This document shows positions 1,563-64,000 of a DNA stretch of 64,000 bases, one piece after another (position 1 is the first letter of the stretch; each line of letters begins with the position of its first letter). The translations under genes were made by a program, and so were the position numbers. Below the pieces are notes generated by a model. That model did no database searches and was not told the DNA's origin. It saw only the letters and a list, made by a program, of their open reading frames with translations. The stretch lies in the IMG/VR virus record IMGVR_UViG_3300020492_000001, positions 12,305 through 76,304 of that record. The stretch is one strand, 5' to 3'. Source of the stretch: a virus (Duplodnaviria; Caudoviricetes).

Positions 1563-1688
1563 ATTCTACTTATTTATACCTCAAATGTAACGAAAATAAT
1601 TAATTGTTTTTAACTCAAAGTTGAATTAAAAAAGCCTCACATTTCTGTAAGGCTAGTTGTAATTAAATTCAAGATTGCGACCCTAGAT

Positions 1689-2351: not shown

Positions 2352-2539
2352 GCTAATAACGTATCTAATATAACACCTCCTATACCTACATAAATAGCAT
2401 AAGTAGCATTAGATTCATACCATGTCATTCCTGCAATGGCACTTACTATACCTTTTGCGTATTGCTGTAATTTTACAATCTCTGATTGGGTATTCCCGAA
2501 TAAATTAAATACCGAGAAATATACTTTATACTTTTTCAT
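2324..2539 (-). CDS. Small membrane protein, holin candidate
   Basis: Two hydrophobic segments; lysis cluster. Confidence 0.35.
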   Translation of the reverse strand: MKKYKVYFSVFNLFGNTQSEIVKLQQYAKGIVSAIAGMTWYESNATYAIYVGIGGVILDTLLACLYLEEKN

Positions 2540-2550
2540 ATCTTAATTTT

Positions 2551-3165: not shown

Positions 3166-3284
3166 GCTACTAATTTTTTAATATTAAACTTCTTTCTTTG
3201 ACATTAATGTTTTACAAGCATCACCGCGTACTTGCGGATGCTTTTCTTTCTAATCCTTTCAGTTATTAGTTTTTGTATTCTGAA

Positions 3285-3683
3285 CTAGATATTTTTGGCT
3301 TTTAAATAACCTGTTAGTTCAGCTAAATTATTACTAATGTTTTGCTGCATCTTTTCTACAGTGTCTAACTTGTTCCATAACTTATTGTGAGCTACTTCTT
3401 GCTCACTTTTTATTTCAGTTATTTTACTGTAAATTAAATTCTCTTTTTTTTCTACTGTATCCATGATATATTCTACTGTTGCTTTTTTTGTATTTTTAGA
3501 ATGTAAAAACTTCTCATTTACAACTTTTTTAAATTCATCTAATTCATCATTAACTTCAGATATTTTAATGTTAGCTTTTTCTGAACTTGATTTTATAACA
3601 TAAACAAAACTAACTATAGAGCCTAATCCTATGATAATTGCTACTACGTCTTTTATTCCAAATATTAATTCTGAGGCATTCAT
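3285..3683 (-). CDS. Holin-like protein (N-terminal TM plus coiled coil)
   Basis: Single N-terminal TM, charged coiled coil, directly upstream of the lysin candidate. Confidence 0.4.
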   Translation of the reverse strand: MNASELIFGIKDVVAIIIGLGSIVSFVYVIKSSSEKANIKISEVNDELDEFKKVVNEKFLHSKNTKKATVEYIMDTVEKKENLIYSKITEIKSEQEVAHNKLWNKLDTVEKMQQNISNNLAELTGYLKAKNI

Positions 3684-3763
3684 AGTCTTTTAAGTTCTTT
3701 TATTTTAAAGCAATTATTAATTCGTATATTGTTTTATGGTTATATTCTGAAATTTTAATATCA

Positions 3764-3982
3764 TTAGTTAATAATATAATTAATTAATTCACTATCTGTA
3801 ACTAAAATAATATCATCTTTTTTTAAATCTAATTCTAATACCCTTGTATTGTTTTCTGATTTGGCTAAAATAACATCATCAAAAATATTATCATTAATTT
3901 TCACAATACTATTAACATCTAAATTATTTGAAATAGTTAATACTATTTTACAGTCTTTTAATGCTTTATAAATTTCTTTCAT
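3764..3982 (-). CDS. Hypothetical protein
   Basis: ORF tightly packed in operon. Confidence 0.55.
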   Translation of the reverse strand: MKEIYKALKDCKIVLTISNNLDVNSIVKINDNIFDDVILAKSENNTRVLELDLKKDDIILVTDSELINYIIN

Positions 3983-3984
3983 AA

Positions 3985-5448
3985 TTATTTTTCTATTATT
4001 ACTGTAAAATAAACAGCCTTTGTTCCTAGACTTGCAAACACAGCACCAGCAGCAGTTGCTCTAAAATCAACGATATTGCTACCTTCCCAAACAAAACACC
4101 TAGCAAAAATATTTGTACCGTTATTTATTGCAAACCTACAATCATCTAATTGCACTCCATTATTTGTAAAAGGAAGTACAACTTGCGTATTTGAACTATT
4201 AGATATTCCTGTTACTTGTCCGTTTACAATATAATATGAACCCATATCTACAGATTTTATTTTATTAATTGAATAAGAAAGCCAACCAATTATTGTACAA
4301 CTTGCCGTTATATCTACCCAGCTATTACTTTGCTTGTTTTTCCACAAACTTGTAGCACTATCGTATGTTAATACATCGTTGTTTGCTACTCCATTTATTA
4401 AAACATTATGAAGTTCATTTAATTCATAACCATTGTCAACTTTAACAAATATAGTTCCTTGAGTTATATGAGCATGTACTACATAACCAATAATAACTAT
4501 ATGATTTGGTGCAATAGGTTTTATATTTGTAATATTACCAGCAGTTGTTGGACTTAAATATAAAATATCTCCATCCGCCCAAGTTTCGCTTTGTAAAGAA
4601 CCAGTTGTATTAATACCTCTTACTAATCCGCTTGTAGTAATAAATCCTTCTTGATTATTCGCTATTGTTTCCGTTACTAAACCAATTGTTTCAGCACTTA
4701 ATAAATCACTTGTCGCTAAAGCTAAATCTACTTTTAATCTTTGACCTTGCGCCCCTGTAACTCGTACAGCTTGATAGTTAGATTCTAATAAAGTAATGTT
4801 TGTTGCTGTTTTATTAACTACTCTTGATACTTGCTCTTGTCCGATTTGTAAAGTAACATTGCCACCTTTTAATTTTAAATCTAAAGTTCCATCTGTATCA
4901 TTCCAAACTACACTACCAGCAGTTGTTGGTATATTAGTTGGTGTATTATCAAACTCTAAATTACCTAATTGTATTCCAAACTCGCCTAAATTAACATCAC
5001 TTATTGCACCTACATAAGGTACATAACCATTAGCATCCATTTGCATGATGTTAGTCATGTTTAGATTAGGCAAATCAATAGCTTTAATTTTAAATATGTA
5101 GACTAATGCTACAGGATAAGCGGAAGGAGTACCACTAAGGACATAATTCCCACTAGTATCAAAACTAGTAACCGATACCACTGTACCACCAATGGTAAGC
5201 GGAGATTGTCCAGTTGGTTGCCCATTACTAAGTGTTTCAACAAGAGCATCGCCACCACTATAAAATTGGTCCAAAAGTATTGTCGCACCTGTGGGTTTCG
5301 TGATTGTGCCTGTTGCTGAACTGATGGTCTGGAAGTAAAGGATTTTATATTCATTATTTTCTAAATTTGTTACACGATTATTTAATGCAGGGTCTGCCCC
5401 AGCTTGACTGAATATTTTTCTAGGATTCTTTACTGCTGACTGTCCCAT
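3985..5448 (-). CDS. Tail fibre-like protein
   Basis: G/T/N-rich beta character; fibre-type segments ELNELHNVLINGVANNDVLTYDSATSLWKN. Confidence 0.65.
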   Translation of the reverse strand: MGQSAVKNPRKIFSQAGADPALNNRVTNLENNEYKILYFQTISSATGTITKPTGATILLDQFYSGGDALVETLSNGQPTGQSPLTIGGTVVSVTSFDTSGNYVLSGTPSAYPVALVYIFKIKAIDLPNLNMTNIMQMDANGYVPYVGAISDVNLGEFGIQLGNLEFDNTPTNIPTTAGSVVWNDTDGTLDLKLKGGNVTLQIGQEQVSRVVNKTATNITLLESNYQAVRVTGAQGQRLKVDLALATSDLLSAETIGLVTETIANNQEGFITTSGLVRGINTTGSLQSETWADGDILYLSPTTAGNITNIKPIAPNHIVIIGYVVHAHITQGTIFVKVDNGYELNELHNVLINGVANNDVLTYDSATSLWKNKQSNSWVDITASCTIIGWLSYSINKIKSVDMGSYYIVNGQVTGISNSSNTQVVLPFTNNGVQLDDCRFAINNGTNIFARCFVWEGSNIVDFRATAAGAVFASLGTKAVYFTVIIEK

Positions 5449-36885: not shown

Positions 36886-36958
36886 TGTCTGATGGTGTAA
36901 CTGGCAACACGACTGATTTTGGTTCAGTAGAGTCTAAGTTCGAGCCTTAGTCAGACAA
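36886..36958 (+). tRNA. trnQ: tRNA-Gln (anticodon TTG)
   Basis: Acceptor TGTCTGA/TCAGACA, D-stem GTGT/ACAC, anticodon arm ACTGA-TTTTGGT-TCAGT, T-arm CTAAG-TTCGAGC-CTTAG. Confidence 0.9.
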
Positions 36959-36986
36959 CGAGCTAGTTCGAGTCTAGTCGCTAACC

Positions 36987-40124: not shown

Positions 40125-40180
40125 TTTAATTATTTTGAAAATAAACGTAACCTTTTAAATTTATATACGTTTAAATAGAT

Positions 40181-40310
40181 AGATAACGTTGAGTATATAT
40201 GTTCGGTTGCGATTAATAGCACGAACTTATCAATTTAAACAAAACTTAATAGAATGAACAAAATTTCAAATAAACACGAAACCGCAACTGACATATATAC
40301 TGTGTTATGT
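40181..40310. repeat. attC-like site E1
   Basis: GATAAC-GTTG-AGTATATATG...CATATATACT-GT-GTTATGT. Confidence 0.75.
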
Positions 40311-40706
40311 GCTGCCTTTTGTGGTGCTGGTAAAACATTTATTTGTGATAAAACAGATATAAAGGCAGTTGAAGTTGAATATTGGAAGTATAAAGAAAAA
40401 GGACTGTTCAAAGAATATATTGAAGATGTTAAGAAGTATATCGGTAAGGTAGATTACATCTTTATTGCAACAGAGCCAGAAGGAATGAAATTGCTACATG
40501 ATGAAGGATTTGAAATAACTCTTGTTTACCCAAAAAATGAACTCCGAAACGAATATTTGGATAGATACATTGAGCGTGATAGTCCTTATGATTTTATTGG
40601 AACATTTATGAAGCATTGGCATATATGGATTGATGAACTTAAAGAGCAAAAATATTGTAAGCATATTATTTTGGATTCAGGACAATACTTGCAGAATGTT
40701 CTTTAA
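40254..40706 (+). CDS. Cassette 1: small P-loop NTPase/kinase-like protein
   Basis: Walker A-like AFCGAGKT; starts inside E1. Confidence 0.65.
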   Translation: MNKISNKHETATDIYTVLCAAFCGAGKTFICDKTDIKAVEVEYWKYKEKGLFKEYIEDVKKYIGKVDYIFIATEPEGMKLLHDEGFEITLVYPKNELRNEYLDRYIERDSPYDFIGTFMKHWHIWIDELKEQKYCKHIILDSGQYLQNVL

Positions 40707-40710
40707 GGTT

Positions 40711-40807
40711 GCACATAACGTTTTGCGGCTTGGCGAAGGCTGCCTAACGGATGCTCAATTTTCGCACAAATTTCAATGGCAGCTTTTGCCAAACCGCTGT
40801 TACCTGC
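40711..40807. repeat. attC-like site E2
   Basis: GCACATAAC-GTTTT-GCGGCTTGGCGAAGGCTGCC...GGCAGCTTTTGCCAAACCGC-T-GTTACCTGC. Confidence 0.85.
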
Positions 40808-41114
40808 TGGGCGGTTTATCAGTAGGAACTTAAAAATAATATTCAAAATGTTGCCAAAAGAAAAAGCACAGGAACTTGTAAGCAAGTTTAAAGATTACGT
40901 TCACGGATATGTTGGTAGCTCAATGCTTACCAACCATGAATACCCTGAACAAATTTTATCACAAGCAAAGAAAGTAGCAATTATTGTTGCAGATGAAATG
41001 CTCCATCAATACACTACTTTAAATGCTGATTTAATAAACGCATTGTATCGAACAGAAAAGGTTGTCTTTTGGCAACAGGTCAAAATAGAAATTGATTATG
41101 TGTCGGAATTGTAG
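40776..41114 (+). CDS. Cassette 2: hypothetical protein (PKEKAxEL family)
   Basis: MLPKEKAQELVSKF resembles 33452 and 34619. Confidence 0.6.
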   Translation: MAAFAKPLLPAGRFISRNLKIIFKMLPKEKAQELVSKFKDYVHGYVGSSMLTNHEYPEQILSQAKKVAIIVADEMLHQYTTLNADLINALYRTEKVVFWQQVKIEIDYVSEL

Positions 41115-41118
41115 CCTT

Positions 41119-41255
41119 GCAGGTAACGTTTCGCAGCTATATTTAGTTGCGATTTTGAAAAACAAAAGTTTAATTAATAAATAAAAGTAAATATGAAAAA
41201 CAAAGTTGAAAATAAGAGCAATAATAAGCAATTGAATATACTAGCTGTTAGGCGT
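41119..41255. repeat. attC-like site E3
   Basis: GCAGGTAAC-GTTTC-GCAGCTATATTTAGTTGC...GCAATTGAATATACTAGC-T-GTTAGGCGT. Confidence 0.8.
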
Positions 41256-41636
41256 AGTTTTTTTAACTTCAAGTATAAATGGCCATTAAGAAAATACTGG
41301 CTTAATTGGTTTAAAAGAGATGTTAAGAGATGGTATTATTCTAAAATACACGGTTTTAAAATGGGTGTATTTGATGGAACTATGATTCCAACTACTGGTA
41401 AAGGTAAATATGTATCTGTTTATTCTAAAGGTGAAATAATCCAAATTAAACATGAAAGCGGTTATGAACATTTAGAGTATGATGAAATTAGAATAATACC
41501 ATGTCAAGAAAATCACGGTGTAATGGTTGAAAGATTTAAAACAGGAAAAATGTGCGATAGAAACCACATGGATTTAAAGCAATTTAATAAAGGTATAATT
41601 TTCGCTTCCAATGTTGAACAGTTGGCTGGTCGTTAA
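41193..41636 (+). CDS. Cassette 3: hypothetical protein
   Basis: Starts in the E3 loop. Confidence 0.6.
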   Translation: MKNKVENKSNNKQLNILAVRRSFFNFKYKWPLRKYWLNWFKRDVKRWYYSKIHGFKMGVFDGTMIPTTGKGKYVSVYSKGEIIQIKHESGYEHLEYDEIRIIPCQENHGVMVERFKTGKMCDRNHMDLKQFNKGIIFASNVEQLAGR

Positions 41637-41640
41637 AATT

Positions 41641-41780
41641 ACGCCTAACGTTTTGCAACTTGCATTAGTGCCTTGCAAAAATACGAGTAGCTTCGGATTA
41701 AAAAAGAACACAACAAATAAAAAACAAACATTAAATTAACAACCAAGCCAAAGGCATTGATGCAAATTGCTGTTATGCGC
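41641..41780. repeat. attC-like site E4
   Basis: ACGCCTAAC-GTTTT-GCAACTTGCATTAGTGCCTT...AAGGCATTGATGCAAATTGC-T-GTTATGCGC. Confidence 0.85.
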
Positions 41781-41803
41781 TGGCAAAAAAAAAATTAAAA
41801 ATT

Positions 41804-42118
41804 ATGAGTACAATTATCGAAGACATTCAGTTTATGAAATCAATTTTGCCTGAACACTATGAGGTAAAAGAAAGTAAAAAATCAGGTTCAATTCATTGTA
41901 AATCAAGTATTGGATTAAGAAAAACGCCATACAATAGTTTTGATAGTTTTAAACGACCAATTATTGTTGATGATGCGGAAGATGAAGAACAATGGTTTTA
42001 TATCGTTGAAGCTATTAAAGCAAAGTTTGGCGAAAGGTTACAGGAAATTGACCATAACACTTGTTTTTGCCACGTCGATTTCACGATTTATCTGCGGTTT
42101 TCCGTTGCTTGCGCATAA
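41804..42118 (+). CDS. Cassette 4: hypothetical protein
   Basis: Stop TAA lies within GCGCATAAC. Confidence 0.6.
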   Translation: MSTIIEDIQFMKSILPEHYEVKESKKSGSIHCKSSIGLRKTPYNSFDSFKRPIIVDDAEDEEQWFYIVEAIKAKFGERLQEIDHNTCFCHVDFTIYLRFSVACA

Positions 42119-42247
42119 CGGTTTGCAGCTAAACGAGGTGGCTGATTAATACCTCGAAACTTAATTAAAAGAACAAAATTATGAACACAGACAAAAGTTT
42201 ATTAGAAGAACAAAGCAAGCCATCTTTTTTAGGTGCTGTTATGTGCC
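42111..42247. repeat. attC-like site E5
   Basis: GCGCATAAC-GGTTT-GCAGCTAAACGAGGTGGCT...AGCCATCTTTTTTAGGTGC-T-GTTATGTGCC. Confidence 0.85.
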
Positions 42248-42387
42248 GTTTTTTATTCCAATACAGAAGTATGGATAAAGATTTAATGGTACATATTGAA
42301 GCAAGTAGTTTAAATTATGCAATGGTGAAATTTGCAACTCACTACCATTTAATTGATGAAGTGTATGAGATTGCAAGGGTGTCCTAA
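42181..42387 (+). CDS. Cassette 5: hypothetical protein
   Basis: Starts in the E5 loop. Confidence 0.55.
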   Translation: MNTDKSLLEEQSKPSFLGAVMCRFLFQYRSMDKDLMVHIEASSLNYAMVKFATHYHLIDEVYEIARVS

Positions 42388-42390
42388 AAT

Positions 42391-42545
42391 GGCACATAAC
42401 GGAAAATAATAAACGTATGTGTTGGTGTGTGGTTAAAGTGTTCCTCTGGCTAATGGACAAGTACCATAACCGTAAGTGCCTAAAACTTACCATACCACGC
42501 TACGGGCGGAACACGCCAACATTACGTTTATTTATTGTTAGCAAA
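42391..42545. repeat. attC-like site E6 (long structured loop; precedes an ORF-less cassette)
   Basis: GGCACATAAC-GGAA-AATAATAAACGTATGTGTTGG...CCAACATTACGTTTATTTATT-GTTAGCAAA. Confidence 0.75.
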
Positions 42546-42556
42546 TCGTTTTAATG

Positions 42557-42638
42557 TTTGCTAACGGCATCAAGCTAAAAGCTGACCGCCTAATAAGCGG
42601 TTAGTATATGGCGGTTTGATTTTAGGTTGTGTTATGTT
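42557..42638. repeat. attC-like site E7
   Basis: TTTGCTAAC-GGCAT-CAAGCTAAAAGCTGACCGCC...GGCGGTTTGATTTTAGGTTG-T-GTTATGTT. Confidence 0.8.
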
Positions 42639-42699
42639 GGTGCGATGGCAAGTGTGTGAGGCAGTTTTATTTTATTAATTTTTAAAAAAGCGGAGGAAA

Positions 42700-42912
42700 A
42701 TGGAAAACTTATACTTTAGAAAAAAACTTATATGGGCTGAAATTGAGCGATTAAAACACGAACTTGAAAAGAATCAAGAGTTTATTAACTTATTTCAAAA
42801 ACAAAACAATGATTTGCTAAAACAGATTGAAAAGCAATTTAAAGAAATAGAAATTGTTGGAGAGCAATTACTAAAAATAGAAACAGAACAATTAATAAAA
42901 CATGATTTATGA
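42700..42912 (+). CDS. Cassette 7 gene a: coiled-coil hypothetical protein
   Basis: 70-aa ORF. Confidence 0.55.
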   Translation: MENLYFRKKLIWAEIERLKHELEKNQEFINLFQKQNNDLLKQIEKQFKEIEIVGEQLLKIETEQLIKHDL

Positions 42913-43178
42913 CAACAGAAAAACCACTTAGAAAAACAGGCAGTTATATAGTAATTGCCAAACGTTGGAGCAGCGAACAATCACATAATTACATTGTAGA
43001 TTTATGCTCAGGAATTGATTCAGCTAAAGAAATTGCAGAAAATGAAATGCGAGAGCGTGGCGGTAAATATGGGATACAGATAATTGCTTTTAGAGAAGAT
43101 AACAACGAGCAAGAAATTGTTTTTGAAATTGAAAGCCCATATAAGAATAAGGTAAATATACCTACTGATAACGCTTAG
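42909..43178 (+). CDS. Cassette 7 gene b: hypothetical protein
   Basis: ATGA overlap with gene a. Confidence 0.55.
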   Translation: MTTEKPLRKTGSYIVIAKRWSSEQSHNYIVDLCSGIDSAKEIAENEMRERGGKYGIQIIAFREDNNEQEIVFEIESPYKNKVNIPTDNA

Positions 43179-43214
43179 GTGCGTAGGCTTTTAAAAATTA
43201 ATAAAATAAAATTG

Positions 43215-43303
43215 AACATAACGGTTTGCAGCTAATAGAAGGCTGTAATTACACAAAAATATATGAGCTGTTAACTCAGCTTTTTATTAGGTGCTGTTAG
43301 TAC
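43215..43303. repeat. attC-like site E8
   Basis: AACATAAC-GGTTT-GCAGCTAATAGAAGGCTG...CAGCTTTTTATTAGGTGC-T-GTTAGTAC. Confidence 0.85.
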
Positions 43304-43351
43304 CAGTAGCCAAATTAAAATTTAAAAACAATAACAATTAAAAACTAAAAT

Positions 43352-43630
43352 ATGAAAAACAACAAAGAACAATCGTACCAATACGCTGCAATTATACAAG
43401 GCGCAATAGCAGAAATGTTAAATGAAGATAGTGATAGCGATTATAGAATATCGTTAAGCGATTTTGATGATGAGGATAAAGCAACTGCATTTTTGCACGC
43501 ATTAGCTAATATAGTGCCTTGTAATATCTATAAAAAATTAACTCAAGATGATACTGACATTTTAGGTTTTAATCATATCGCTAATAGATTAGTATATCAA
43601 TTTACAAAGCAGGACGAAGCCGAAGATTAA
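43352..43630 (+). CDS. Cassette 8: hypothetical protein
   Basis: 92-aa ORF between E8 and E9. Confidence 0.6.
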   Translation: MKNNKEQSYQYAAIIQGAIAEMLNEDSDSDYRISLSDFDDEDKATAFLHALANIVPCNIYKKLTQDDTDILGFNHIANRLVYQFTKQDEAED

Positions 43631-43646
43631 ACATCAAAGGCTATTA

Positions 43647-43780
43647 GTACTAACGGTTGGTGCTTTATTTAGTGCCGACTTAACAGATAAAATTTAATTG
43701 AAACACAAATGAAAAATAAAAAGACAAAAGTAAAATCGAAGCCGAAAACTAAGGCATTGAATAAAGCACTTGTTAGCAGT
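43647..43780. repeat. attC-like site E9
   Basis: GTACTAAC-GGTT-GGTGCTTTATTTAGTGCC...GGCATTGAATAAAGCACT-T-GTTAGCAGT. Confidence 0.85.
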
Positions 43781-43966
43781 AGTGCCTATGTGCGTTACCG
43801 CTACTCAGGTAAATCTTCTTCAATATTTTGGGATATAGTAAATTCATTACCAAAAGATGCAGACAGACAAGAGATGTATGCTTTAGGATGCGTTTTGCAA
43901 AATGTTGAAGAAGATGTGTTGAGAACACTAAGGAATATTAACAGCAAGTATGTGCGTGGCAAATAG
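43709..43966 (+). CDS. Cassette 9: hypothetical protein
   Basis: Starts in the E9 loop. Confidence 0.6.
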   Translation: MKNKKTKVKSKPKTKALNKALVSSSAYVRYRYSGKSSSIFWDIVNSLPKDADRQEMYALGCVLQNVEEDVLRTLRNINSKYVRGK

Positions 43967-43971
43967 GCATT

Positions 43972-44110
43972 ACTGCTAACGTTCTGGCGGTTGGCGTTCG
44001 TTGCCGACTTTGGAACACTAAACTTTCACTTTTAAAATAAATTTGATATGGAACACAAAACTTCAATAAACCACGAAAACGGCAATGACGCCAACCGCTT
44101 GTTACCAGCA
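43972..44110. repeat. attC-like site E10
   Basis: ACTGCTAAC-GTTCT-GGCGGTTGGCGTTCGTTGCCG...CGGCAATGACGCCAACCGCT-T-GTTACCAGCA. Confidence 0.85.
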
Positions 44111-44275
44111 GTTAGTTGGTATAAATCATTATCGCTCAACCAAAAGATGGCGCTCAAAGAAGTATCAGCATTAATTTGTGGAATGAAATGGGAAGATTTC
44201 AATATTCTATTCAGTCCACGAGAAAGACTTGAGATATTGCACAACAAATTAATATTGGAAGGTTTCCTTGTCTAA
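44048..44275 (+). CDS. Cassette 10: hypothetical protein
   Basis: Starts in the E10 loop. Confidence 0.55.
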   Translation: MEHKTSINHENGNDANRLLPAVSWYKSLSLNQKMALKEVSALICGMKWEDFNILFSPRERLEILHNKLILEGFLV

Positions 44276-44276
44276 T

Positions 44277-44379
44277 TGCTGGTAACGTTTTGCAGCTAAT
44301 AGAAGTGGCTGCTTGTAAGAACTTCTGAATTATAAACAAATGCTTGTAGCAGCCATTTTTGTTAGGTGCTGTTATAAGC
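44277..44379. repeat. attC-like site E11
   Basis: TGCTGGTAAC-GTTTT-GCAGCTAATAGAAGTGGCTGCT...AGCAGCCATTTTTGTTAGGTGC-T-GTTATAAGC. Confidence 0.85.
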
Positions 44380-44396
44380 TGTAAAAATTACGACTT

Positions 44397-44603
44397 ATGA
44401 AAACGTATTTATCATTTTACGGAGATTGTTATTACCCAAGCGGTGGTATGGGTGATTTTATTGGAGATTACGACACCAAAGAAGAAGCGATACAAGCTAT
44501 TGAAGAAGCTCACAAAAAGAACCGCCCTGATGATTTAGAATGGGAGTGGGCTTGGGCTAATGTTTGGAGTGCACATGACCGAATCGAAGTGTACACTAAG
44601 TAA
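44397..44603 (+). CDS. Cassette 11: small phage-type protein (YYPxGGxxDF family)
   Basis: YLSF...YYPSGGMGDFIGDYDTKEEA motif familiar from phage hypotheticals. Confidence 0.6.
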   Translation: MKTYLSFYGDCYYPSGGMGDFIGDYDTKEEAIQAIEEAHKKNRPDDLEWEWAWANVWSAHDRIEVYTK

Positions 44604-44611
44604 TTTTTATT

Positions 44612-44679
44612 GCTTATAACGGATGAAGCCTTACCCAGCGAAGGTGTCGACCGAGTTGGGTAAGGGTTGGGTTATAAGC
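44612..44679. repeat. attC-like site E12 (shortest, 68 bp)
   Basis: GCTTATAAC-GGAT-GAAGCCTTACCCAGC...GTTGGGTAAGGGTTG-G-GTTATAAGC. Confidence 0.8.
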
Positions 44680-44728
44680 TGACGGTTACTAATGTTACTA
44701 TGAAAAACAATTTAAAAAAAATAACGAT

Positions 44729-44914
44729 ATGATTGAAATAGAAGAATTATTTGGTGGAAATGATGCCGAAGAACACAATGTTTTATACACTATTATTAAA
44801 AATAGAGGATATAAATATTTTGAAGAAACACCCAAAACAAGTATGACTTGCGGATTAATTAAAGATTTACACGAACTAAATTACGAGATTGTAAAAAAAA
44901 ACGTTTCAAAGTAG
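44729..44914 (+). CDS. Cassette 12: hypothetical protein
   Basis: 61-aa ORF between E12 and E13. Confidence 0.55.
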   Translation: MIEIEELFGGNDAEEHNVLYTIIKNRGYKYFEETPKTSMTCGLIKDLHELNYEIVKKNVSK

Positions 44915-44923
44915 CTACCGTTT

Positions 44924-45051
44924 GCTTATAACGGTTCGCAGATAAACGCAGTTTTATGAAACAGAAATTAGATATAGAAAAAATTAGAGAGTTGGAAACC
45001 ATAGCTAAAGAATTAGATGCTGAAAAATTGCGTTTATCTGCTGTTAGCAAA
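44924..45051. repeat. attC-like site E13
   Basis: GCTTATAAC-GGTTC-GCAGATAAACGCAGTTT...AAATTGCGTTTATCTGC-T-GTTAGCAAA. Confidence 0.85.
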
Positions 45052-45153
45052 TCGGTTTGCGACCACTCTTGGATGAACACAGGATTATCAGTACAAGGCA
45101 AAAGTTTGATGGTATGCACCAAATGTAGGGAAACCAAGCAAACTGTTTGCTAA
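44956..45153 (+). CDS. Cassette 13: small putative Zn-ribbon protein
   Basis: CDHSW...CTKC; starts in the E13 loop and stops within TTTGCTAAC. Confidence 0.55.
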   Translation: MKQKLDIEKIRELETIAKELDAEKLRLSAVSKSVCDHSWMNTGLSVQGKSLMVCTKCRETKQTVC

Positions 45154-45200
45154 CTATTATATGTAAACTACCCTTTAAACTAACAGCAAAATCAATACTC
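45146..45200 (-). other. attI-like half-site
   Basis: Core GTTAGCAAA on the minus strand with no palindromic partner arm; second GTTAG about 30 bp away; lies just 5' of the recombinase start. Confidence 0.55.
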
Positions 45201-45221: not shown

Positions 45222-46055
45222 ATGAATTTAGAAAAGTGGATAAATAGATATAAAACTGATTGTGCTTTAAAGTATAATAGTGATGCAACCAAAGAAAATT
45301 ACACTTCTGGAGTTAAATCTTTTCTTATAAAATTCGATAAATATTCTGAGCCTAAAGAAATACCGACTCAGGAAATTAAAGAGTATTTATTGACTTTTAA
45401 AACGATAAATACACGAAAGCATAACCTTTGCTCTATTAAATCTTTCTATAAATTAACTGTAGGTATGCCAAGCAAGATTGATAAGATTCCTTATCCTAAG
45501 TCTGATAAGAAACTACCTATCGTTCTTTCTGTAAACGAAATTCAAAGAATGTTTAATGTCTGCCAAAATAAGAAGCATAAAGCAATTTTAGCTTTACTGT
45601 ACTCTTGTGGATTACGTGTATCGGAACTTATAAATTTGAAATGGAAAGATATTGATAGAAGTAGAATGGTAATTAATATAATCCAAGCTAAGGGAAATAA
45701 GGATAGGCAAGTCCCATTATCTCAAGATTTGATTAATGTATTAGAAAGTTACTGGAATGAGTACAAGTCCGCCGAGTATGTTTTTAATGGACAAAAATCA
45801 CTGCAATACACAGATAGAAGTGTAGGAGAAGTAATTAAACAGTTGGCAGATAAAGCAGGAATATGTAATAAAAGGGTTTACACACACCTTATGCGTCATT
45901 GCAGCTTTACGCACATGGTTGAGAACGGAACTGATATTTCGCTTATCCAAAGACTCGCTGGACATTCTAGTGTAAAAACGACTAATATCTACCTCCATAT
46001 CAGCCATAATCACATAAGTAAAATCCAAAGTCCACTAAGTAATATTAAATTATAA
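45222..46055 (+). CDS. Tyrosine recombinase, integron-integrase-like (lacks IntI-specific insertion)
   Basis: SAM-like N-terminal domain; KLPIVLS; complete catalytic set GLRVSE, KGNKDR, THLMRH, LAGH, TNIY. Confidence 0.9.
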   Translation: MNLEKWINRYKTDCALKYNSDATKENYTSGVKSFLIKFDKYSEPKEIPTQEIKEYLLTFKTINTRKHNLCSIKSFYKLTVGMPSKIDKIPYPKSDKKLPIVLSVNEIQRMFNVCQNKKHKAILALLYSCGLRVSELINLKWKDIDRSRMVINIIQAKGNKDRQVPLSQDLINVLESYWNEYKSAEYVFNGQKSLQYTDRSVGEVIKQLADKAGICNKRVYTHLMRHCSFTHMVENGTDISLIQRLAGHSSVKTTNIYLHISHNHISKIQSPLSNIKL

Positions 46056-58398: not shown

Positions 58399-61300
58399 TT
58401 ATTTTATTTGATTTTCAACAAATGTTACAGCCTTACCTCCTGGTAAAATTCTCTTAGTTTTCTGCCAAGCATCTTCCTCAAATCCTACAAGTGCTTTAAA
58501 AGCATTTAACATATCTTTAATCTTACCTAAAACAGCAGCAGGGTTACTTACCATATACTTATCTTGTTCTAAATCAAAAATAAATAACACTTGACTTAAT
58601 GCGCTATCCCAATTTAATCCACCTTTTTTCTTATCATCATCGTCATCTCCTCCGTGTTTAAGAGCTAATAAAGCGCCGATAGTAGCCATTCCTTTTAAGT
58701 TTTGAACAAAAGCAGGATTAGTTAAAGCTTTTTTAATATCACCTTTCTTTAAATCGGTAGCCATTTCTTTAATTCCTACTCTTAACATCTTAGTATAAGA
58801 ACCTTCTTTCTCTTGGCCATAAGCATTAAAGTATCTAGCAGAGAATCTTTCTTTGAACCAATCTGGCATCCATACTTTAAATTGGAATAAAGCCTTACCA
58901 AACTCTCCGCGCATAATATTACGGCGGTCCTCGTCAGGATATTTACCTTGTATGTCTGTAACTCTATTCTTAATTTGAGTCATTTTAGACTTAATCTCAT
59001 CTTCAGTATATTTTCCGTTAGGTTTAACAGTTAATACATCGTTACCATACTTGTCTTTAGTAAACTCAAAGCTATCAAACTCTTCTTGACTAAGTAATCC
59101 TAATCCTAATGAACCTTGTATTTGATATTCACCTACTTGAGTACCCCACGTTGCTAACTTAGAAAATACACTACCTGCTTTAATTACAGGATGTGAGTCA
59201 AAGTCTTGGTTTACTAAGTTATACTTCTTAATAATAGCTAAAGCATAATCATTAACAATACCTATTTCTTTTCTACTTCCCTTACCTCCAAATAATCTAG
59301 CATTACCTCTAGCTAATGTTTCAGCATTCTCGGCTCTCCAATTATTGTAGTTACCTACAAATACGTTAATAGTATTAGCAGGAATATTAAACCACATAGT
59401 TGTACTTGCTACTAATTTTCTTAAAGATTTAATAGCAGCGTCAATAACAGGATCGTTCACGTATGGTTCTTTGAAAATCTGTAAAGCTTTCCAATCGTTA
59501 ATCCACTTAGATACATTCTTTTTAGGAACATATCCCTCTTCCATATAGCCATTCTTATTAAGATACTCTATAGCCTCCACTAATGGCATAATCTTACTAA
59601 TATGCTTAACGTGTGCTGACTCATCTATAAATTGATTCATAGCTTTATAGAAGTCTTTTGAGTAACCTCTATCCGCAGCTCTTGGCTTATCAAACTTACT
59701 TACTAATTGACCTTTCTCGTTTAATGAATACTCAGAATCTCCCTTTAATTCTAAAGGATTATCTTTCTCATCAATGTTTTGACCTTTCTTTAATTGGTAT
59801 CTAGCTTTAATGTTAGCTACAAGTAAATTGTATAAAGCCTTTGCTATACTCTTAATGTTTTTCTTATCAACGCCAGCGATAATCTCTTTTTCTATTTCAG
59901 AATAAGACATTACTTTACCATTATGTAAGATTCTTACTCTACCTAAATTAGTTGCTCCGCCGCCTAAGTAATAACTAAAAGCAGGGATTAAACCTTCTGA
60001 CTTATAAGCCTCTCTAAAGTTCTTATCAACTCTAATAGCACCCATCTTAACATTCTCATAGTCATTTGAAGACATAGATTCTCTATATCCTGCAACTGTT
60101 TCTCTATGGAAGTCTAAGTAGTCAAGTTTAGCCTTAGATAATCCTTTAGCTTTTGCTTCGTCTATTGTTAAGTAATCACCTTTTTCGTTAATCATCCACT
60201 CGAAGTACTTACTTGAGTCAGAACTAAATCTATTGGCGGCTTTACCTACAATACCTAATCTCTTATTCTCTTCTTGAATTACTTTTAATCCAAGTTTAGC
60301 ATGAGTATCTTTTAATGAATTAGCTTCAGTTATCTTGTCAATGATAGCTTTACCGTTTGCTAATGCTAAAGCTTGCATATCAGCGTTCTTTTCAGAGAAT
60401 TGAGAGTAGTGTAATATCTTACTTTGCAATGGACTAATATCACTTGTCTTACCTAAAGCCTCTATAAAGCCTTCGTTATCTTTATGTATCTCGTTTTGCT
60501 TAACAGTAACTAGATGTCCAAGTCTTTGATACGCTCTTTCTTTTACAGATTTAGCAGCTCTATCATTAAATGCGAATAGCTTAGTAATTAAATCATTAAG
60601 TTCTTCAATATTGTATTCATCTAAGTTATCATCTTCTAAGATAGCTTGTACTGCTCTAAAGTCTTTTTTATACTTCAAGTATCCTAAGTATCTTTTAGCT
60701 TTGATAGCAAACTCTTTACTAGCTTCTTTTAATAAAGCTCTTTGTTTCTCTAACTCAGCATCAGCAGCCTTAATTTCTTCATCAGTAACAGCTTCATCGG
60801 CGGCTATTGTAGCTAATTTCTCATCTTCTTTTACCTCTCTTAATTCTACAGTAGCTTGCTCGTATTTATCAAATTCTTTCTGAGCATCAAAGCCTTCTTC
60901 CATAGCATATTGATTATACTTTAATGCTTGCGCTGCGAATGGTTTTTTCTTTTCTTTATCAGTCTTTTGTAATTGTTCTTTCCCTGTAGCAACTCCTTCT
61001 AGGTTCTTAGTTTTAACACCTCCGATTATCTGTTTAGCAAGACTCTTAGCTACGTTTTTATCCATACCTAACTTCTGTTTTAACCAATCAAATATGTAGT
61101 CTAAGTAAGCTTTAAACTTACTTCTATCTTCAACTTTATCAAAGATGTCAGCGCCTTCTCTTCCGATTGCTTCTGCTAATACTTCTTTATCTAATTCTTG
61201 TTCACTTAATTCTTTGTAACGTTCTTTTGTTTCTGCATATAAAGGAGTTGTTCTTAGTTGTTTTACGGCTGCTTGTATAACTTTATTGTTATATCCCATA

Positions 61301-64000
61301 GCATCAATTAAAACGTGTCCTGCTTCATGTATAACGGTATCTAATCCTGCGTAATTAGGATTTAAGTAAATATTTTTACCGTCTGCCGATACCTTACCTG
61401 CAACCGTAGACTGACTCTCGTCAAATTTACCTGCATTTACTTCTACATTAATTTTAGGGAATGATGCAGCTATTTTATCCCTTACCTTAGTAATATCCCC
61501 TTTACGTTGAGATACTTTTTGGAATTGGTCAGGTCCATACTCACCTCTAACTATATCTTCTTCTCCACTTTTTTTGCTCTCAGTTTTAATAAAGACATCG
61601 TTAATTTCACCCTCATCTCCGAAGTAATCGGCTGAGATTTCTTTTGCGAGTTGTTCGTTTCTTTCGTTTTCATTTGTGTTTTCTATTTTTTCTGTTATTT
61701 GTATATATTCTTCCGCATTTACATTCTGGGATAGTTCCTTATCCTTTTCAAAATCAGATTCTTTTATATTATTCTCTTTAACATAAGCTTCTAATTCCTT
61801 AATCTCTTTATCAGTATATCCATCGTTAATTTCTCTTTCGTAAGCTTCAACAGCATAATCAATAGCTAAATCTCTGCCTCCTTCTGTTAAATATTCTTTT
61901 AAGAAGTTCATAGCTTCTAAGTTGAAATAAGATTCATCAACAGATTCATCATTTAAGTTAGCTCTGTTTTTATAACCTTGCAATAAAGACTCTAAATTAT
62001 ACCCTGTTTTAAAATCCTTCATCATAGAAGGAACGTCAGGAATATTTATAGTCACACTTTCTGCAAATTGACCTTTAGAACCTATAACCATAGCAAGGTA
62101 CTGAGGTATTGAAGTTGGAGTAGTATTTAAAGCATCTTTTCTTTTCTTAGCAATAGCTTTTTCAGCATCTATAACAGATTGTTCTCTTTTTACAGGAGCT
62201 TTCTTTACTTGCTTACCTTCGCTATCTAGTAATTGTATTTTACCTTTAAGTAAAGGTTTAAGTGAACCGCCAAACTCCTCAACTTCTTTTTGAATTTCTT
62301 TTCTAAGATTAACTCCAAATTCAGATTTCTTTTCATCACTACTTAATTGATTATAACCTTTTATTTTTCTTCTAAGACTTGAACTATCTTTTTTAGTAGT
62401 AGGTTCTTTTTTAGTAGATTCCTTTTCTGAACTAACTTCTTTCTTATTAGTTTCTTGTTTATTAATAATTTCTAATGCTCTTTCAGGCTTCATGTTATCC
62501 ACATTAACCTTACTATATCCTAAGTCAAATAATTGTTGTCTTACTGCTTTTGTAATAGTTAATGGAACTGACGCTTTTTGTTCTTTTACTTTAGCCTTTG
62601 CTTCTTCAACTATCTTATTAGTAGCTTCTTTAGCTTTCTCTGTAGGAGTTGGTTTAGGTTTAGGTTTAGTAAGTCTTTCTATAACATCACCGCCTTCAGG
62701 ATTTTCGTTATACATCTGTTGCTCTAAGGTTTTAAGTAAATCCTTTTGCTCTGCTGTATATAATTCATTGCCTGCTTTATCTAAAGACTCTGCGCTACCT
62801 AATTTAGTTTCTTTAGCCCATGATAAAAACTTGCCTGTTCTAGCATCAAATACTTTTAAAGCTATTTTGCCAGGCTTGTAATTAGGTCCTTTATCTTCAT
62901 TTAACGGATTGTTTAAGTCAACTGCGCGGATACCTACAGGTAATCCCTCTTCATTTCCTTGCGTTCTTTCACTTCTAAAGTGTCTTCTAAAAATATCATC
63001 CCATCTTACCGTCTTATCATTCTCATCTTTAAATTCTTGCTTAGAAGAGGCTACACGTATTTTCTTACCATCTTCCATAGTAACTTCTATAACATCACCC
63101 TTCATTCTATCTCCTTTATCATTAACATAAGAATATAATCTCTTAGTTAAGTTTCCGAATAGTTTTCTGTTAGGTTTATTATAAGCTTCTTTACGAACTA
63201 CTCTATGAATAGTCCGCGCATCAGTAGAAGGATTATTAAATTCTTCTGTATCTATTTCTTCATAAGTTCTTTTGTCGTCTTTCCAATAAGGTTTATTTTC
63301 AAGTTTAGGATATGTAATTACTTTTTCTTGACCTAAACCTTCAATATCGGGCTGTCTTGTTTTAGCTTTTTCAACTTCCTTTTCTTGACTCAACTTTGAG
63401 TTAGTTTCTTCTACCTTAATCTCCTTCTCTTTTTCTTTTTTAATACGCTCTTCTTCCTTTTTAGGAACTATTGGTTCACCTTTGATTTCTCCTTGGCGGA
63501 TAATATCATTTAATTCAGATTGAAGTTCTTTAGCTTGTTTCTGTTTACTCTCAACCTTTGCTCTAGCAATCGGATCAAGTTTAGAGATTTCATTCTCATT
63601 AGTTGGTATCTCAGTTTTAAGCCCTTGTATTTGGAATGATAATTCAAATGCTTTTTTCTCATCCTCTGGCTTTAAATTAACATCTTTAGTTTCTTCGTTA
63701 TACTTGCTATAAGCATCTATTTTAAAGTTAGCCTGCTCGTATTCTGGCGTAGTTATCTCTCCTTTATCTAAAGCATTATTTAAGTCAGTTCTTAAGGCAT
63801 TAACCGCTTCTGGACCTTCCTTAACTCTTTGGTAAGCATTAACAGATTGTCTATCATGGTTGTTTTTTAATACTTGAGATGGGATAGACATCATTCCTCC
63901 ACTAATAGCTCCTTGGGTAAAACTATTAACATAACTACCAAATGATTTAGCATCAAAGGCATCTGTTCCAAATTGTCCTCTCTCATCAGGAGTTAATTTA
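58399..64000 (-). CDS. Giant virion cargo/polyvalent protein with zincin-like motif; 5'-truncated by the window edge
   Basis: Frame stays open from 63894 to 63999 (KLTPDERG...QGAISGGMM), so >1866 aa; IHEAGH...EVLAEAIG metallopeptidase-like motif; K/E-rich coils. Confidence 0.7.
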   Translation of the reverse strand, partial: KLTPDERGQFGTDAFDAKSFGSYVNSFTQGAISGGMMSIPSQVLKNNHDRQSVNAYQRVKEGPEAVNALRTDLNNALDKGEITTPEYEQANFKIDAYSKYNEETKDVNLKPEDEKKAFELSFQIQGLKTEIPTNENEISKLDPIARAKVESKQKQAKELQSELNDIIRQGEIKGEPIVPKKEEERIKKEKEKEIKVEETNSKLSQEKEVEKAKTRQPDIEGLGQEKVITYPKLENKPYWKDDKRTYEEIDTEEFNNPSTDARTIHRVVRKEAYNKPNRKLFGNLTKRLYSYVNDKGDRMKGDVIEVTMEDGKKIRVASSKQEFKDENDKTVRWDDIFRRHFRSERTQGNEEGLPVGIRAVDLNNPLNEDKGPNYKPGKIALKVFDARTGKFLSWAKETKLGSAESLDKAGNELYTAEQKDLLKTLEQQMYNENPEGGDVIERLTKPKPKPTPTEKAKEATNKIVEEAKAKVKEQKASVPLTITKAVRQQLFDLGYSKVNVDNMKPERALEIINKQETNKKEVSSEKESTKKEPTTKKDSSSLRRKIKGYNQLSSDEKKSEFGVNLRKEIQKEVEEFGGSLKPLLKGKIQLLDSEGKQVKKAPVKREQSVIDAEKAIAKKRKDALNTTPTSIPQYLAMVIGSKGQFAESVTINIPDVPSMMKDFKTGYNLESLLQGYKNRANLNDESVDESYFNLEAMNFLKEYLTEGGRDLAIDYAVEAYEREINDGYTDKEIKELEAYVKENNIKESDFEKDKELSQNVNAEEYIQITEKIENTNENERNEQLAKEISADYFGDEGEINDVFIKTESKKSGEEDIVRGEYGPDQFQKVSQRKGDITKVRDKIAASFPKINVEVNAGKFDESQSTVAGKVSADGKNIYLNPNYAGLDTVIHEAGHVLIDAMGYNNKVIQAAVKQLRTTPLYAETKERYKELSEQELDKEVLAEAIGREGADIFDKVEDRSKFKAYLDYIFDWLKQKLGMDKNVAKSLAKQIIGGVKTKNLEGVATGKEQLQKTDKEKKKPFAAQALKYNQYAMEEGFDAQKEFDKYEQATVELREVKEDEKLATIAADEAVTDEEIKAADAELEKQRALLKEASKEFAIKAKRYLGYLKYKKDFRAVQAILEDDNLDEYNIEELNDLITKLFAFNDRAAKSVKERAYQRLGHLVTVKQNEIHKDNEGFIEALGKTSDISPLQSKILHYSQFSEKNADMQALALANGKAIIDKITEANSLKDTHAKLGLKVIQEENKRLGIVGKAANRFSSDSSKYFEWMINEKGDYLTIDEAKAKGLSKAKLDYLDFHRETVAGYRESMSSNDYENVKMGAIRVDKNFREAYKSEGLIPAFSYYLGGGATNLGRVRILHNGKVMSYSEIEKEIIAGVDKKNIKSIAKALYNLLVANIKARYQLKKGQNIDEKDNPLELKGDSEYSLNEKGQLVSKFDKPRAADRGYSKDFYKAMNQFIDESAHVKHISKIMPLVEAIEYLNKNGYMEEGYVPKKNVSKWINDWKALQIFKEPYVNDPVIDAAIKSLRKLVASTTMWFNIPANTINVFVGNYNNWRAENAETLARGNARLFGGKGSRKEIGIVNDYALAIIKKYNLVNQDFDSHPVIKAGSVFSKLATWGTQVGEYQIQGSLGLGLLSQEEFDSFEFTKDKYGNDVLTVKPNGKYTEDEIKSKMTQIKNRVTDIQGKYPDEDRRNIMRGEFGKALFQFKVWMPDWFKERFSARYFNAYGQEKEGSYTKMLRVGIKEMATDLKKGDIKKALTNPAFVQNLKGMATIGALLALKHGGDDDDDKKKGGLNWDSALSQVLFIFDLEQDKYMVSNPAAVLGKIKDMLNAFKALVGFEEDAWQKTKRILPGGKAVTFVENQIK

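Follow-up and report, generated by a model that had tools for sequence, protein, structure and literature searches.

The question raised by this locus is what kind of system holds a row of small genes, each of which travels with its own pair of matching ends. The window, i.e., the whole stretch of 64,000 nucleotides that was analysed, belongs to a 76-kb freshwater phage and contains an integron-like array of 13 mobile gene cassettes beside its own small Xer-like recombinase gene. The carrier is a phage with terminal repeats. The array was interpreted as a phage-borne, integron-like cassette platform, the cassettes of which are probably moved at TAA|C by the neighbouring Xer-like recombinase.

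All features of the array were placed on the + strand. Each cassette is ordered as hairpin element, internal arm (GTTA and 11 nt), gene, and terminal arm (11 nt and TAAC). The hairpin loop often carries the ribosome site and the start codon of the gene, and six genes of the array start inside it. The fixed left border is a distal terminal arm, TAGATAGATAAC (40176-40187); left-flank homology of relatives stops at 40190-40193, and a contig loose end lies at 40188. Cassette 1 (40187-40718) has its hairpin element at 40188-40303, internal arm GTTATGTGC at 40304, terminal arm GCACATAAC ending at 40719, and a gene for a Walker-A-like protein of 150 aa (40254-40706, phrog_4182). Cassette 2 (40719-41126) comprises a hairpin element, arms GTTACCTGC at 40799 and GCAGGTAAC ending at 41127, and a gene of 88 aa (40848-41114, phrog_21441). 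Cassette 3 (41127-41648) has arms GTTAGGCGT at 41247 and ACGCCTAAC ending at 41649, and its gene (41193-41636, 147 aa) starts inside the hairpin loop. Cassette 4 (41649-42118; arms GTTATGCGC at 41772 and GCGCATAAC ending at 42119) encodes 104 aa at 41804-42118. Cassette 5 (42119-42399; arms GTTATGTGCC at 42238 and GGCACATAAC ending at 42400) encodes 68 aa at 42181-42387, with the start in the loop. Cassette 6 (42400-42564) is non-coding, i.e., a long hairpin element and a 29-bp body (GTTAGCAAA, 11 nt, TTTGCTAAC), with the GTT arm starting at 42537 and the AAC arm ending at 42565. Two genes (42700-42912 and 42909-43178) were found in cassette 7 (42565-43221; arms GTTATGTT at 42631 and AACATAAC ending at 43222).

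Cassette 8 (43222-43653) has its arm at 43296, a gene of 92 aa (43352-43630) and an arm end at 43654. In cassettes 9 (43654-43979; arm at 43772, arm end at 43980) and 10 (43980-44285; arm at 44101, arm end at 44286), the genes (43709-43966, 85 aa, and 44048-44275, 75 aa) start in the loop. The same internal arm, GTTATAAGC, is found at 44371 in cassette 11 (44286-44619; gene 44397-44603, 68 aa; arm end at 44620) and at 44671 in cassette 12 (44620-44931; gene 44729-44914, 61 aa), the latter ending with GCTTATAAC at 44932. Cassette 13 (44932-45153), which adjoins the recombinase, has arms GTTAGCAAA at 45043 and TTTGCTAAC ending at 45154, and a gene (44956-45153, 65 aa) that starts in the loop. 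The attI-like junction follows at 45151-45175, i.e., the last TAAC and then TATTATATGTAAAC, and right-flank homology of relatives begins at 45148-45151. The compact Xer-like tyrosine recombinase (277 aa) is encoded at 45222-46055.

The initial annotation had reported that each unit begins with GTT and ends with AAC, with matching sequences that differ between units. These pairs were found in all 13 cassettes, and the match counts were reproduced for cassettes 8 (14/16), 9 (14/15), 10 (14/15) and 11 (18/20). The match in cassette 9 continues to about 20/22, and the weakest own pair is that of cassette 7, with 8 bp only. When matches over the 12 nt beyond GTTA/TAAC were summed over own pairs, the score was 115 versus 49 ± 7.7 for shuffled pairings. 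Because none of 100,000 permutations reached the observed sum, chance is excluded as the source of the own-end match. The facing arms of linear sites match at only 1-6 of 12 positions versus 4-11 of 12 for own pairs. The rule was repeated in 44 independent cassettes of related phages, none of which is shared with the window (own 8.9/12 versus non-own 4.4/12; 0/20,000). A detector of the end signature, run on the whole window, returned nine pairs, all inside the array and on the + strand, and none on the - strand or in shuffled sequence.

Each cassette was circularised in silico, and folding energies were computed with DNA parameters. The mean was -26.3 kcal/mol for own sites, -18.7 for linear hybrid sites and -18.6 for other pairings; when the own ends are joined, the gain is about 7.6 kcal/mol. 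The own pairing ranked first of 14 in 11 of the 13 cassettes, and the summed energy was reached by 0/20,000 permutations. The pairing is longer than the 7-bp core, as had been proposed, but the extension is a constant stem of approximately 15 bp rather than a variable one of 15-20 bp. Stem positions 4-9 and 12-14 are Watson-Crick pairs, position 10 is free, and pairing decays after position 15. At position 11, 40 of 43 cassettes have a G·T wobble, which is confined to the + strand. All 13 sites carry TAACG and GTTA without variation. The sites have the attC-type organization of imperfect inverted repeats, R''-L''...L'-R', with conserved AAC and GTT. As in integrons, the two R arms of a cassette are complementary to each other, not to the facing arms. 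The L stem covaries, with 87.6% of cells paired, a level reached by 0/500 shuffles, and the hairpin elements inside one array share a mean column identity of only 48%.

The + strand folds more stably than the - strand in 13/13 sites. Because the strand with the G·T bias is also that of the mRNA, the pairing may act in RNA, i.e., transcript structures would set processing, stability or translation, and the cassette look would be secondary. As this explanation would have it, pairs other than Watson-Crick ones read as G·T on the sense strand (54 wobbles on the + strand versus 5 on the - strand), loops hold start codons and ribosome sites, and genes and sites all lie on one strand. Nevertheless, an RNA role is very unlikely. 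It leaves unexplained why units move between genomes from one TAAC to the next, why a half-site is joined to a conserved motif beside the recombinase gene, and why a non-coding cassette is either there or missing as a whole. An Rfam search, which gave no family match, also counts against it.

The mobile unit had been annotated as running from GTT to AAC, which is wrong; at either side of the unit, homology breaks off and contigs are joined at TAAC. Because the joints are at TAAC and the hairpin element is kept with the downstream gene, a cassette is delimited from one TAA|C to the next. The GTT arm sits 50-140 nt inside this unit, and the other matching arm ends it. The two arms are therefore "ends" only in the sense that the circle sets them on either side of the hairpin element.

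Cassettes with different neighbours, the search for which had been suggested, were seen in near-identical phages and in independent lake metagenomes. Both flanks are common to near-identical phages and four lake metagenomes, in which the sets and orders of cassettes differ and are joined exactly at TAAC. In phages whose flanks are 98.8-100% identical, divergence sets in at 40190-40193 and 45148-45151, and these phages carry cassettes 11, 10, 5 and 9 in another order, 100% identical from TAAC to TAAC. Contigs of the lake metagenomes join 44282 to 42116, 44616 to 43977, 42396 to 43651, and 43973 to 45148, and one contig of run X8 lacks exactly cassette 6 (joint 42396 to 42562). These joints fall exactly at 4-6 shared letters around TAAC. 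Each shared gene has one constant upstream hairpin element and two different downstream ones. Cassette 5 is 100% identical with other neighbours in L011, L013, L014 and run X12, and in the same four sources cassette 9 directly adjoins the recombinase. In L011, cassette 10 is followed by cassette 5 and cassette 11 by cassette 10, whereas in the window they are followed by cassettes 11 and 12, respectively. The array thus has the integron property of individually mobile cassettes with breakpoints at a conserved triplet, and one cassette also occurs on another phage backbone. The cassette 1 gene is a cassette with the same arms in a 325-kb phage contig (L124), and L123 and L125-127 have it as an ordinary gene that no sites accompany. 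L010 and L015 carry a twin of the cassette 6 mini-body with other arms, beside the recombinase. Since neither the shuffled pairings nor the neighbours of the cassettes refuted it, the best reading is a footprint of cassettes with a site that is fully paired only when their own ends are joined.

Exchange is not confined to TAAC, because some contigs keep the hairpin element and diverge just past the internal GTTA, with their loose ends lying at 40802, 43301 and 43786, and ORFs are swapped between the same hairpin element, leader and 3' arm. Cassette 2 shares its hairpin element, 5' leader and 3' arm with a 642-kb phage (L002), but the intervening ORF differs. In L035, the 5' leader and 3' end of cassette 7 enclose other content. 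These cases would suit homologous recombination alone, with hairpin elements serving as homology patches between co-infecting phages and the recombinase being a lysogeny integrase. Hairpin elements of about 88% identity across unrelated phages, e.g., 88.7% between that of cassette 4 and one in Flavobacterium phage snusmum6, and arrays without a recombinase also speak for it. However, homologous exchange neither creates nor maintains complementary arms within a cassette that differ between cassettes, nor does it create or maintain a G·T that is fixed at position 11. The elements share 48% column identity, yet the joints lie exactly at the few letters around TAAC, and array, motif and recombinase stay linked down to about 40% protein identity. 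Homologous recombination as the only agent is thus considered unlikely.

The recombinase was matched to PF00589 and PF13495, but its profile scores are below every NCBIfam cut-off. Identity as a XerA, XerD or XerC equivalog was rejected (XerA_Arch 198 vs 220, XerD 175.3 vs 329.6, XerC 162.4 vs 335). An IntI-type integrase was also rejected, i.e., TIGR02249 gave 164.5 bits against a cut-off of 265, with the match split in two stretches, and PRK15417 scored 86 vs 435. By score, the protein is closest to simple tyrosine recombinases of the XerA/XerD type. In the alignment to VchIntIA (2a3v), residues 172-202 of the recombinase face chain residues 175-248, so the IntI-specific insertion of approximately 43 aa is absent. 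The C-terminal SPLS tail is common to both proteins, and none of the catalytic residues (R, K, H, R, H and Y) varies among 18 homologues. Integron integrases hold the flipped-out bases of folded sites with the IntI insertion. Recognition of a folded strand by the phage enzyme would need another solution, because it has no such insertion. The recombinase could also, or instead, serve lysogeny.

At about 18 divergent loci, the last TAAC always abuts the conserved motif TAYTATATGTA, 53-68 nt before the recombinase start, and the motif is kept in loci with recombinase identity down to 57%. Because variable cassettes abut it, the junction is a putative insertion site. A covariance model of the sites gave 99 matches, all on the recombinase strand and, in every recombinase-bearing locus, upstream of the recombinase gene. 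In Bacteroidota genomes, the model also matched upstream of more distant homologues, and the chain rule applies there too. The linkage of array, junction motif and recombinase extends over protein identities from 100% to about 40%. A recombinase is missing from L001 and L002, two loci with covariance hits, and none lies within 6 kb at two very large phage loci; phage snusmum6 has a 10-site array and no tyrosine recombinase.

Integrase-less clusters of attC-like sites (CALINs) were reported in virulent phages by Qi et al. 2023 (PMC9892861), with two to few predicted sites per phage, which were called integrase-less and tested with bacterial IntI1. Those sites, attC-like as in the present array, are located between small genes and genes for DNA methyltransferases; the phages infect Flavobacteriia and other hosts. 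An orphan attC cluster from Bacteroidota hosts, served in trans by host IntI and with the phage recombinase unrelated, was therefore weighed. According to PMC9892861, a Polaribacter phage has such a cluster, and IntI1 recombines some of them; Polaribacter phage P12002L from that study carries the same end signature, and the snusmum6 array has no recombinase. The definition of a CALIN, at least two attC sites and no integrase of the IntI type nearby, formally fits, because the neighbouring recombinase falls outside that type. Against this, wherever a locus has the compact recombinase, its hits are found upstream of that gene and on the same strand, and the conserved motif closes the array. The bacterial loci with the same sites adjoin a recombinase of the compact type, not an insertion-bearing IntI, and the site is unlike canonical attC in its one-sided bulge, 15-bp R stem and fixed G·T. 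This explanation was judged very unlikely. The adjacent phage recombinase, junction site, 15-bp own-end pairing and natural reshuffling are not described in PMC9892861.

Integrons share with the array one-gene cassettes parted by imperfect inverted-repeat sites with ...AAC and GTT..., and crossover at a conserved triplet, which is proposed for the phage and in integrons is between G and TT of GTTRRRY (PMC8876359). In both systems, the arms of a cassette are complementary to each other and not to those of its neighbour, as the exchange of an arm at integration would make them. The insertion site, putative in the phage, lies beside a tyrosine recombinase gene that points away from the array. Genomes that are otherwise the same differ by reshuffling of their cassettes, and one strand folds better. 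Integrons recombine a folded single strand, with replicative resolution and a circular cassette intermediate; the strand asymmetry of the array bears on this only indirectly. The differences are the 277-aa recombinase without the IntI-specific insertion, array genes that run towards the recombinase and not away from it, an R stem of approximately 15 bp with a fixed G·T instead of a 7-bp core, a central unpaired region in the form of a one-sided bulge of 4-5 nt, and a carrier that is a phage with terminal repeats. The hairpin element is 5' of the gene, often with the start codon, so the cassettes are not promoterless ORFs followed by attC. Expression of such ORFs from a promoter near attI, in the style of integrons, was rejected, since the hairpin travels with the downstream gene and the genes face the recombinase.

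In Xer systems (dif, CTX-type attP), the precedent for folded single-stranded DNA as a Xer substrate is attP of the CTX phage. The phage recombinase differs from these in its link to an array of several cassettes, where Xer systems have one dif or attP site. Arms of E. coli dif may have counterparts in the 11-nt arm, which ends in ...CATAA, and in the TATGT of the junction motif, a resemblance that is a lead only. T4-type phages have promoter-stem-loop "mobile regulatory cassettes", for which movement by homologous recombination between repeats has been proposed. Like the array, these are small genes of unknown function in a plastic region, with a repeated stem-loop before each, shuffled between relatives. 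They are not known to have cassette-specific complementary arms, a conserved crossover triplet or a dedicated recombinase.

The terminal arm is the reverse complement of the internal arm of the same cassette, and for the phage platform a mechanism may be proposed in which recombination crosses over at TAA|C. An excised circle, or joined ends of single-stranded DNA, would then have its own arms flanking the hairpin element. These would fold, on the + strand, into one long imperfect hairpin. Its R stem would have 15 bp, with the G·T wobble at position 11, followed by a bulge of 4-5 nt on the 5' side, an L stem in which a mismatch recurs, and a loop that varies. In the array, the hairpin element is flanked by the terminal arm of the previous cassette, so only TAACG/TGTTA pairs. 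The earlier claim that the site becomes fully paired only in the circular form holds as far as joined own ends do pair fully. The restriction to the circle is less firm, because the arms could pair across the gene in single-stranded linear DNA. The contigs that were searched, all of them assembled, contained no circular junction. The 277-aa recombinase most likely inserts cassettes at TAAC|TAYTATATGTA upstream of its own gene and most likely excises them between TAAC sites. Labelling the array as a CALIN would hide this conserved, linked recombinase. The array is the known footprint of an integron, yet it is phage-borne, with a compact Xer-like recombinase and reversed genes.

The array of 13 cassettes, C1-C13, lies at approximately 40188-45154 on the + strand. 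The initial annotation held that each unit carries its own pair of matching ends at GTT and AAC, and all of the GTT/AAC pairs that it listed were recovered at their positions. Over the 12 nt past GTTA and TAAC, the own ends of a cassette showed 4-11 matches with a sum of 115, against 49 ± 7.7 for shuffled pairings, i.e., 0 of 100,000 permutations. The arms facing each other in the linear sites were mismatched as had been claimed, with matches at 1-6 of 12 positions. Circularization in silico with DNA energy parameters gave a mean of -26.3 kcal/mol for the own terminal arm, hairpin element, and internal arm. With the same parameters, the mean was -18.7 kcal/mol for linear hybrid sites, i.e., the hairpin element between the terminal arm of the neighbor and the own internal arm, and -18.6 for all other pairings. 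The own arm ranked best of 14 in 11 of the 13 cassettes, and the observed energy sum was attained by 0 of 20,000 permutations. The match was also found in 44 cassettes of relatives, none of them common to the window, where own ends matched at 8.9 of 12 positions and non-own ends at 4.4 of 12 (0 of 20,000).

The matching ends had been described as an extension of variable length, 15-20 bp, but a comparison of 43 matched-end cassettes, no two of them identical, showed a stem of fixed structure. Numbered from the G of GTT, positions 4-9 were Watson-Crick pairs in approximately 98%. Position 10 was paired in 28 cassettes and mismatched in 13. Position 11 was G in the internal arm and T in the terminal arm in 40 of 43, and Watson-Crick in none. 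Positions 12-14 were paired in 39-42 cassettes, position 15 in 31, and pairing was random from position 16 onward. The AAC-to-GTT stretch of each site, 50-140 nt long, is an imperfect hairpin in which TAACG pairs with TGTTA, followed by a 5'-side bulge of 4-5 nt with the consensus (G)TTTY. The L stem covaries among sites, with 87.6% of cells paired (matched by 0 of 500 shuffles), and past it a variable loop caps the hairpin. Workable wobble pairs numbered 54 on the + strand versus 5 on the - strand, and the + strand fold was more stable in 13 of 13 sites. Six cassettes have a gene start within the hairpin loop, from which the gene reads across the GTT arm. The cassette 1 protein has a Walker-A-like loop, and the residues encoded ahead of the arm and across it belong to the strand preceding that loop.

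Breakpoints were compared in 31 viral contigs encoding relatives of the recombinase. Phages with a recombinase flank 98.8-100% identical to that of the window shared the left flank up to 40190-40193, just beyond the first TAAC, and the right flank from 45148-45151, which is the last TAAC, with other cassettes in between. Contigs L011 and L013 carried window cassettes in the order 11, 10, 5, 9, plus three cassettes not in the window. From TAAC to TAAC, cassettes 11, 5, and 9 were 100% identical and cassette 10 was 97.7% identical. No window cassettes were found in L010, L015, and L037-L039. Logan contigs from four lake metagenomes showed the joints 44282 to 42116, 44616 to 43977, 42396 to 43651, and 43973 to 45148, and in one contig of sequencing run X8, precisely the non-coding cassette 6 was missing (joint 42396 to 42562). 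The loose ends of Logan contigs were mostly at TAAC sites. The lake runs, none of them RNA, were compared as assembled contigs, in which uncovered stretches carry no meaning. The same cassettes were thus found with different neighbors, as the initial annotation had expected, both in near-identical phages and in lake metagenomes. When hairpin elements and gene bodies were clustered separately, every shared body had one upstream hairpin element and two different downstream ones.

The flank limits, the TAAC joints, and the linkage of body and hairpin therefore define the mobile unit as hairpin element, GTT arm, gene, and AAC arm. The unit bounded by GTT and AAC was corrected accordingly to one running from TAAC to TAAC, and by these sequence comparisons the crossover is placed within TAAC. 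A main crossover at GTT, the classical top-strand reading by which the cassette would be a gene with its downstream hairpin, was rejected: the left flank stops at the first TAAC, short of the first GTT, the array terminates in a bare TAAC arm, and shared genes retain the upstream and not the downstream hairpin. The same flank, bare-arm, and upstream-hairpin evidence led to the rejection of a transposon or MITE with GTT...AAC terminal inverted repeats. With the TAAC-to-TAAC unit, the original reading of the ends stands in substance, and the circular form is what we infer from their match.

Some contigs retain the hairpin element and diverge right after the internal GTTA, with loose ends at 40802, 43301, and 43786. 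Cassette 2 (40719-41126) and a 642-kb phage (L002, 5990-6345) were alike in hairpin, 5' leader, and 3' arm, and had unrelated ORFs. Cassette 7 (42565-43221) and contig L035 (390-1160) showed the same pattern, and in both comparisons the hairpin, leader, and 3' arm were 90-98% identical. The pattern suggests a constant cassette frame that receives different genes. Exchange thus also occurs away from TAAC, where it could use the other strand, or could be homologous exchange within conserved parts. Mini-bodies of 29 bp, i.e., GTTA and 5 nt, TCGTTTTAATG, then 5 nt and TAAC, were found at 42537-42565 and just upstream of the recombinase in L010 and L015. They have the same central 11 nt and different arms, one is carried by cassette 6, and they may be empty cassette frames.

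In a 325-kb phage contig, the cassette 1 gene again formed a cassette between the same arms; in four other phages (L123 and L125-L127), it was a plain gene with no sites. In L123 (5860-6440) and L125-L127, the Walker-A-like protein was 68-86% identical to that of window 40254-40706, with no arms, and the L123 homologue has the same N-terminal extension. Such a pair with and without sites may show how a gene acquires its site. These pairs, and those with the same frame and different ORFs, offer concrete material on how cassettes are formed.

A helicase module lies on one side of the array, and the gene of a 277-aa tyrosine recombinase (45222-46055) on the other. The window covers 64 kb of a virus record that is 76,304 bp long and bears direct terminal repeats. 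Its GC content is approximately 0.32, Flavobacterium phages are closest to it at the DNA level, and the sequencing runs in which it occurs are lake-water metagenomes. Portal protein, large terminase, and major head protein genes are on the - strand, and the replication module, i.e., helicases and a DnaB-like helicase, is on the + strand. A tRNA-Gln gene (anticodon TTG) was found inside this module at 36886-36959. An ORF of more than 1,860 aa (58399-63999, - strand) continues past the window end.

The recombinase matched PF00589 and a SAM-like N-terminal domain, and its catalytic residues were invariant in 18 homologues. It scored under every curated cut-off, i.e., XerA 198/220, XerD 175/330, and IntI 164.5/265, and archaeal XerA proteins were its best solved relatives. 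The alignment to the Vibrio integron integrase (2a3v) was split, and approximately 43 IntI residues had no counterpart; therefore, the defining IntI insertion is absent. A C-terminal SPLS tail is common to both proteins. No close homologue was found in the cultured-phage database, where the best hit was 32% identical. Wherever a locus offered enough sequence, TAYTATATGTA or a variant close to it came directly after the last TAAC, 53-68 nt upstream of the start codon of the recombinase. The attI-like junction motif was kept where the recombinases were only 57-65% identical. Arms such as 42108-42118 (...TGCGCATAA), together with TATGT in the junction motif (45151-45175), may resemble the two arms of E. 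coli dif, which would fit an Xer-like recombinase.

Sites were searched by a covariance model built from the 13 sites of the window and by a detector of the own-end signature alone; a simple TAAC/GTTA and L-stem heuristic was dropped, with 12-18 false matches in shuffled sequence. The model gave 99 matches in 28 sources, every one on the recombinase strand, and upstream of the recombinase gene in every source encoding it. L001 and L002 had matches but no recombinase. The arrays of L024, L025, and L027 escaped the model, which also had no match in Polaribacter phage Freya_10. Across the full 64 kb, the detector returned nine pairs, each of them on the + strand inside the array; the - strand gave none, nor did shuffled sequence. 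Outside the window, it picked up pairs in L024 and L025 and in two cultured Polaribacter phages, Freya_10 and P12002L, and none in L027. L001 is Flavobacterium phage snusmum6-1 (MN812234), whose array of 10 sites (279-5297) follows the same end rule, includes two DNA methyltransferase cassettes, and ends with TAAC and then TACAATAT. No tyrosine recombinase is encoded in the 39-kb snusmum6 genome.

Beyond phages, sites of the same kind, with each cassette's own arms mutually complementary, were found upstream of 36-71% identical homologues in Bacteroidota MAG contigs and isolates, e.g., Pedobacter agri. The Pedobacter agri isolate (L090, 4110-8800) and a Melioribacteraceae MAG (L079, 1460-8600) encode recombinases of the compact type with 41-48% identity, and their upstream sites, on the recombinase strand, obey this chain rule. 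The Pedobacter hairpin elements are almost uniform, as in sedentary chromosomal integrons. The Freya integrase is 31% identical to the window recombinase; in Freya_10 (L041, 1-4150), it is closely preceded by two own-end pairs. Among ten Freya isolates, genomes vary from 43,978 to 48,920 bp, as does the distance from record start to integrase. Rfam gave no family for the array, with one chance-level miRNA match, and Pfam and PHROGs gave only families of unknown function for the window's cassette genes.

It is long established that the two core sites of an integron cassette match, six of the seven core bases at the cassette start coming from its own site. As a kind of observation, the own-end match is thus a known footprint. 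The integron crossover lies between bases 1 and 2 of GTTRRRY (PMC8876359). Read on the opposite strand, the array has the layout of a classical integron: the recombinase points away, the putative insertion site adjoins it, and each site has its crossover at G|TT. Unlike in a classical integron, all genes are reversed, and each has its own start signals. For phages, integron parts are on record as attC clusters that lack an integrase, among others in a Polaribacter phage that has methyltransferase cassettes (PMC9892861). The literature searched described no phage array to which a compact recombinase is linked or that has a junction site, no 15-bp arm stem in which a G·T is fixed, and no reversed genes starting inside their own site. 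The system belongs to the integron kind as a new form, not to the IntI family.

We give about even weight to a wider reading, in which a compact Xer-like recombinase lacking the IntI insertion forms the center of a self-contained integron analogue that evolved, or else persisted, around it. The + strand hairpins would be recognized via the 15-bp R stem, the fixed G·T wobble, and the one-sided bulge. Small genes with their own start signals would circulate among Bacteroidota chromosomes and unrelated Bacteroidota phages, freshwater as well as marine, whose sizes range from 39 kb (siphoviruses) to above 600 kb. If this is true, many arrays now labeled CALIN, i.e., attC clusters without an integron integrase, would have an overlooked dedicated enzyme.

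To our knowledge, integrons have been regarded as bacterial devices dependent on a special integrase insertion, and phages have been thought to hold stray pieces at most. Here, a complete platform, i.e., array, junction site, and linked recombinase, was found within a phage replication module. In natural populations its cassettes are reordered, lost, and common to very different phage backbones, and related phages have methyltransferase genes in cassettes of this type. Folded-site cassette recombination would be possible without the IntI insertion if the compact recombinase is what catalyzes it. Some 'integrase-less' attC clusters of Bacteroidota and their phages would then gain an enzyme, and phages would gain a dedicated exchange route for small accessory genes.
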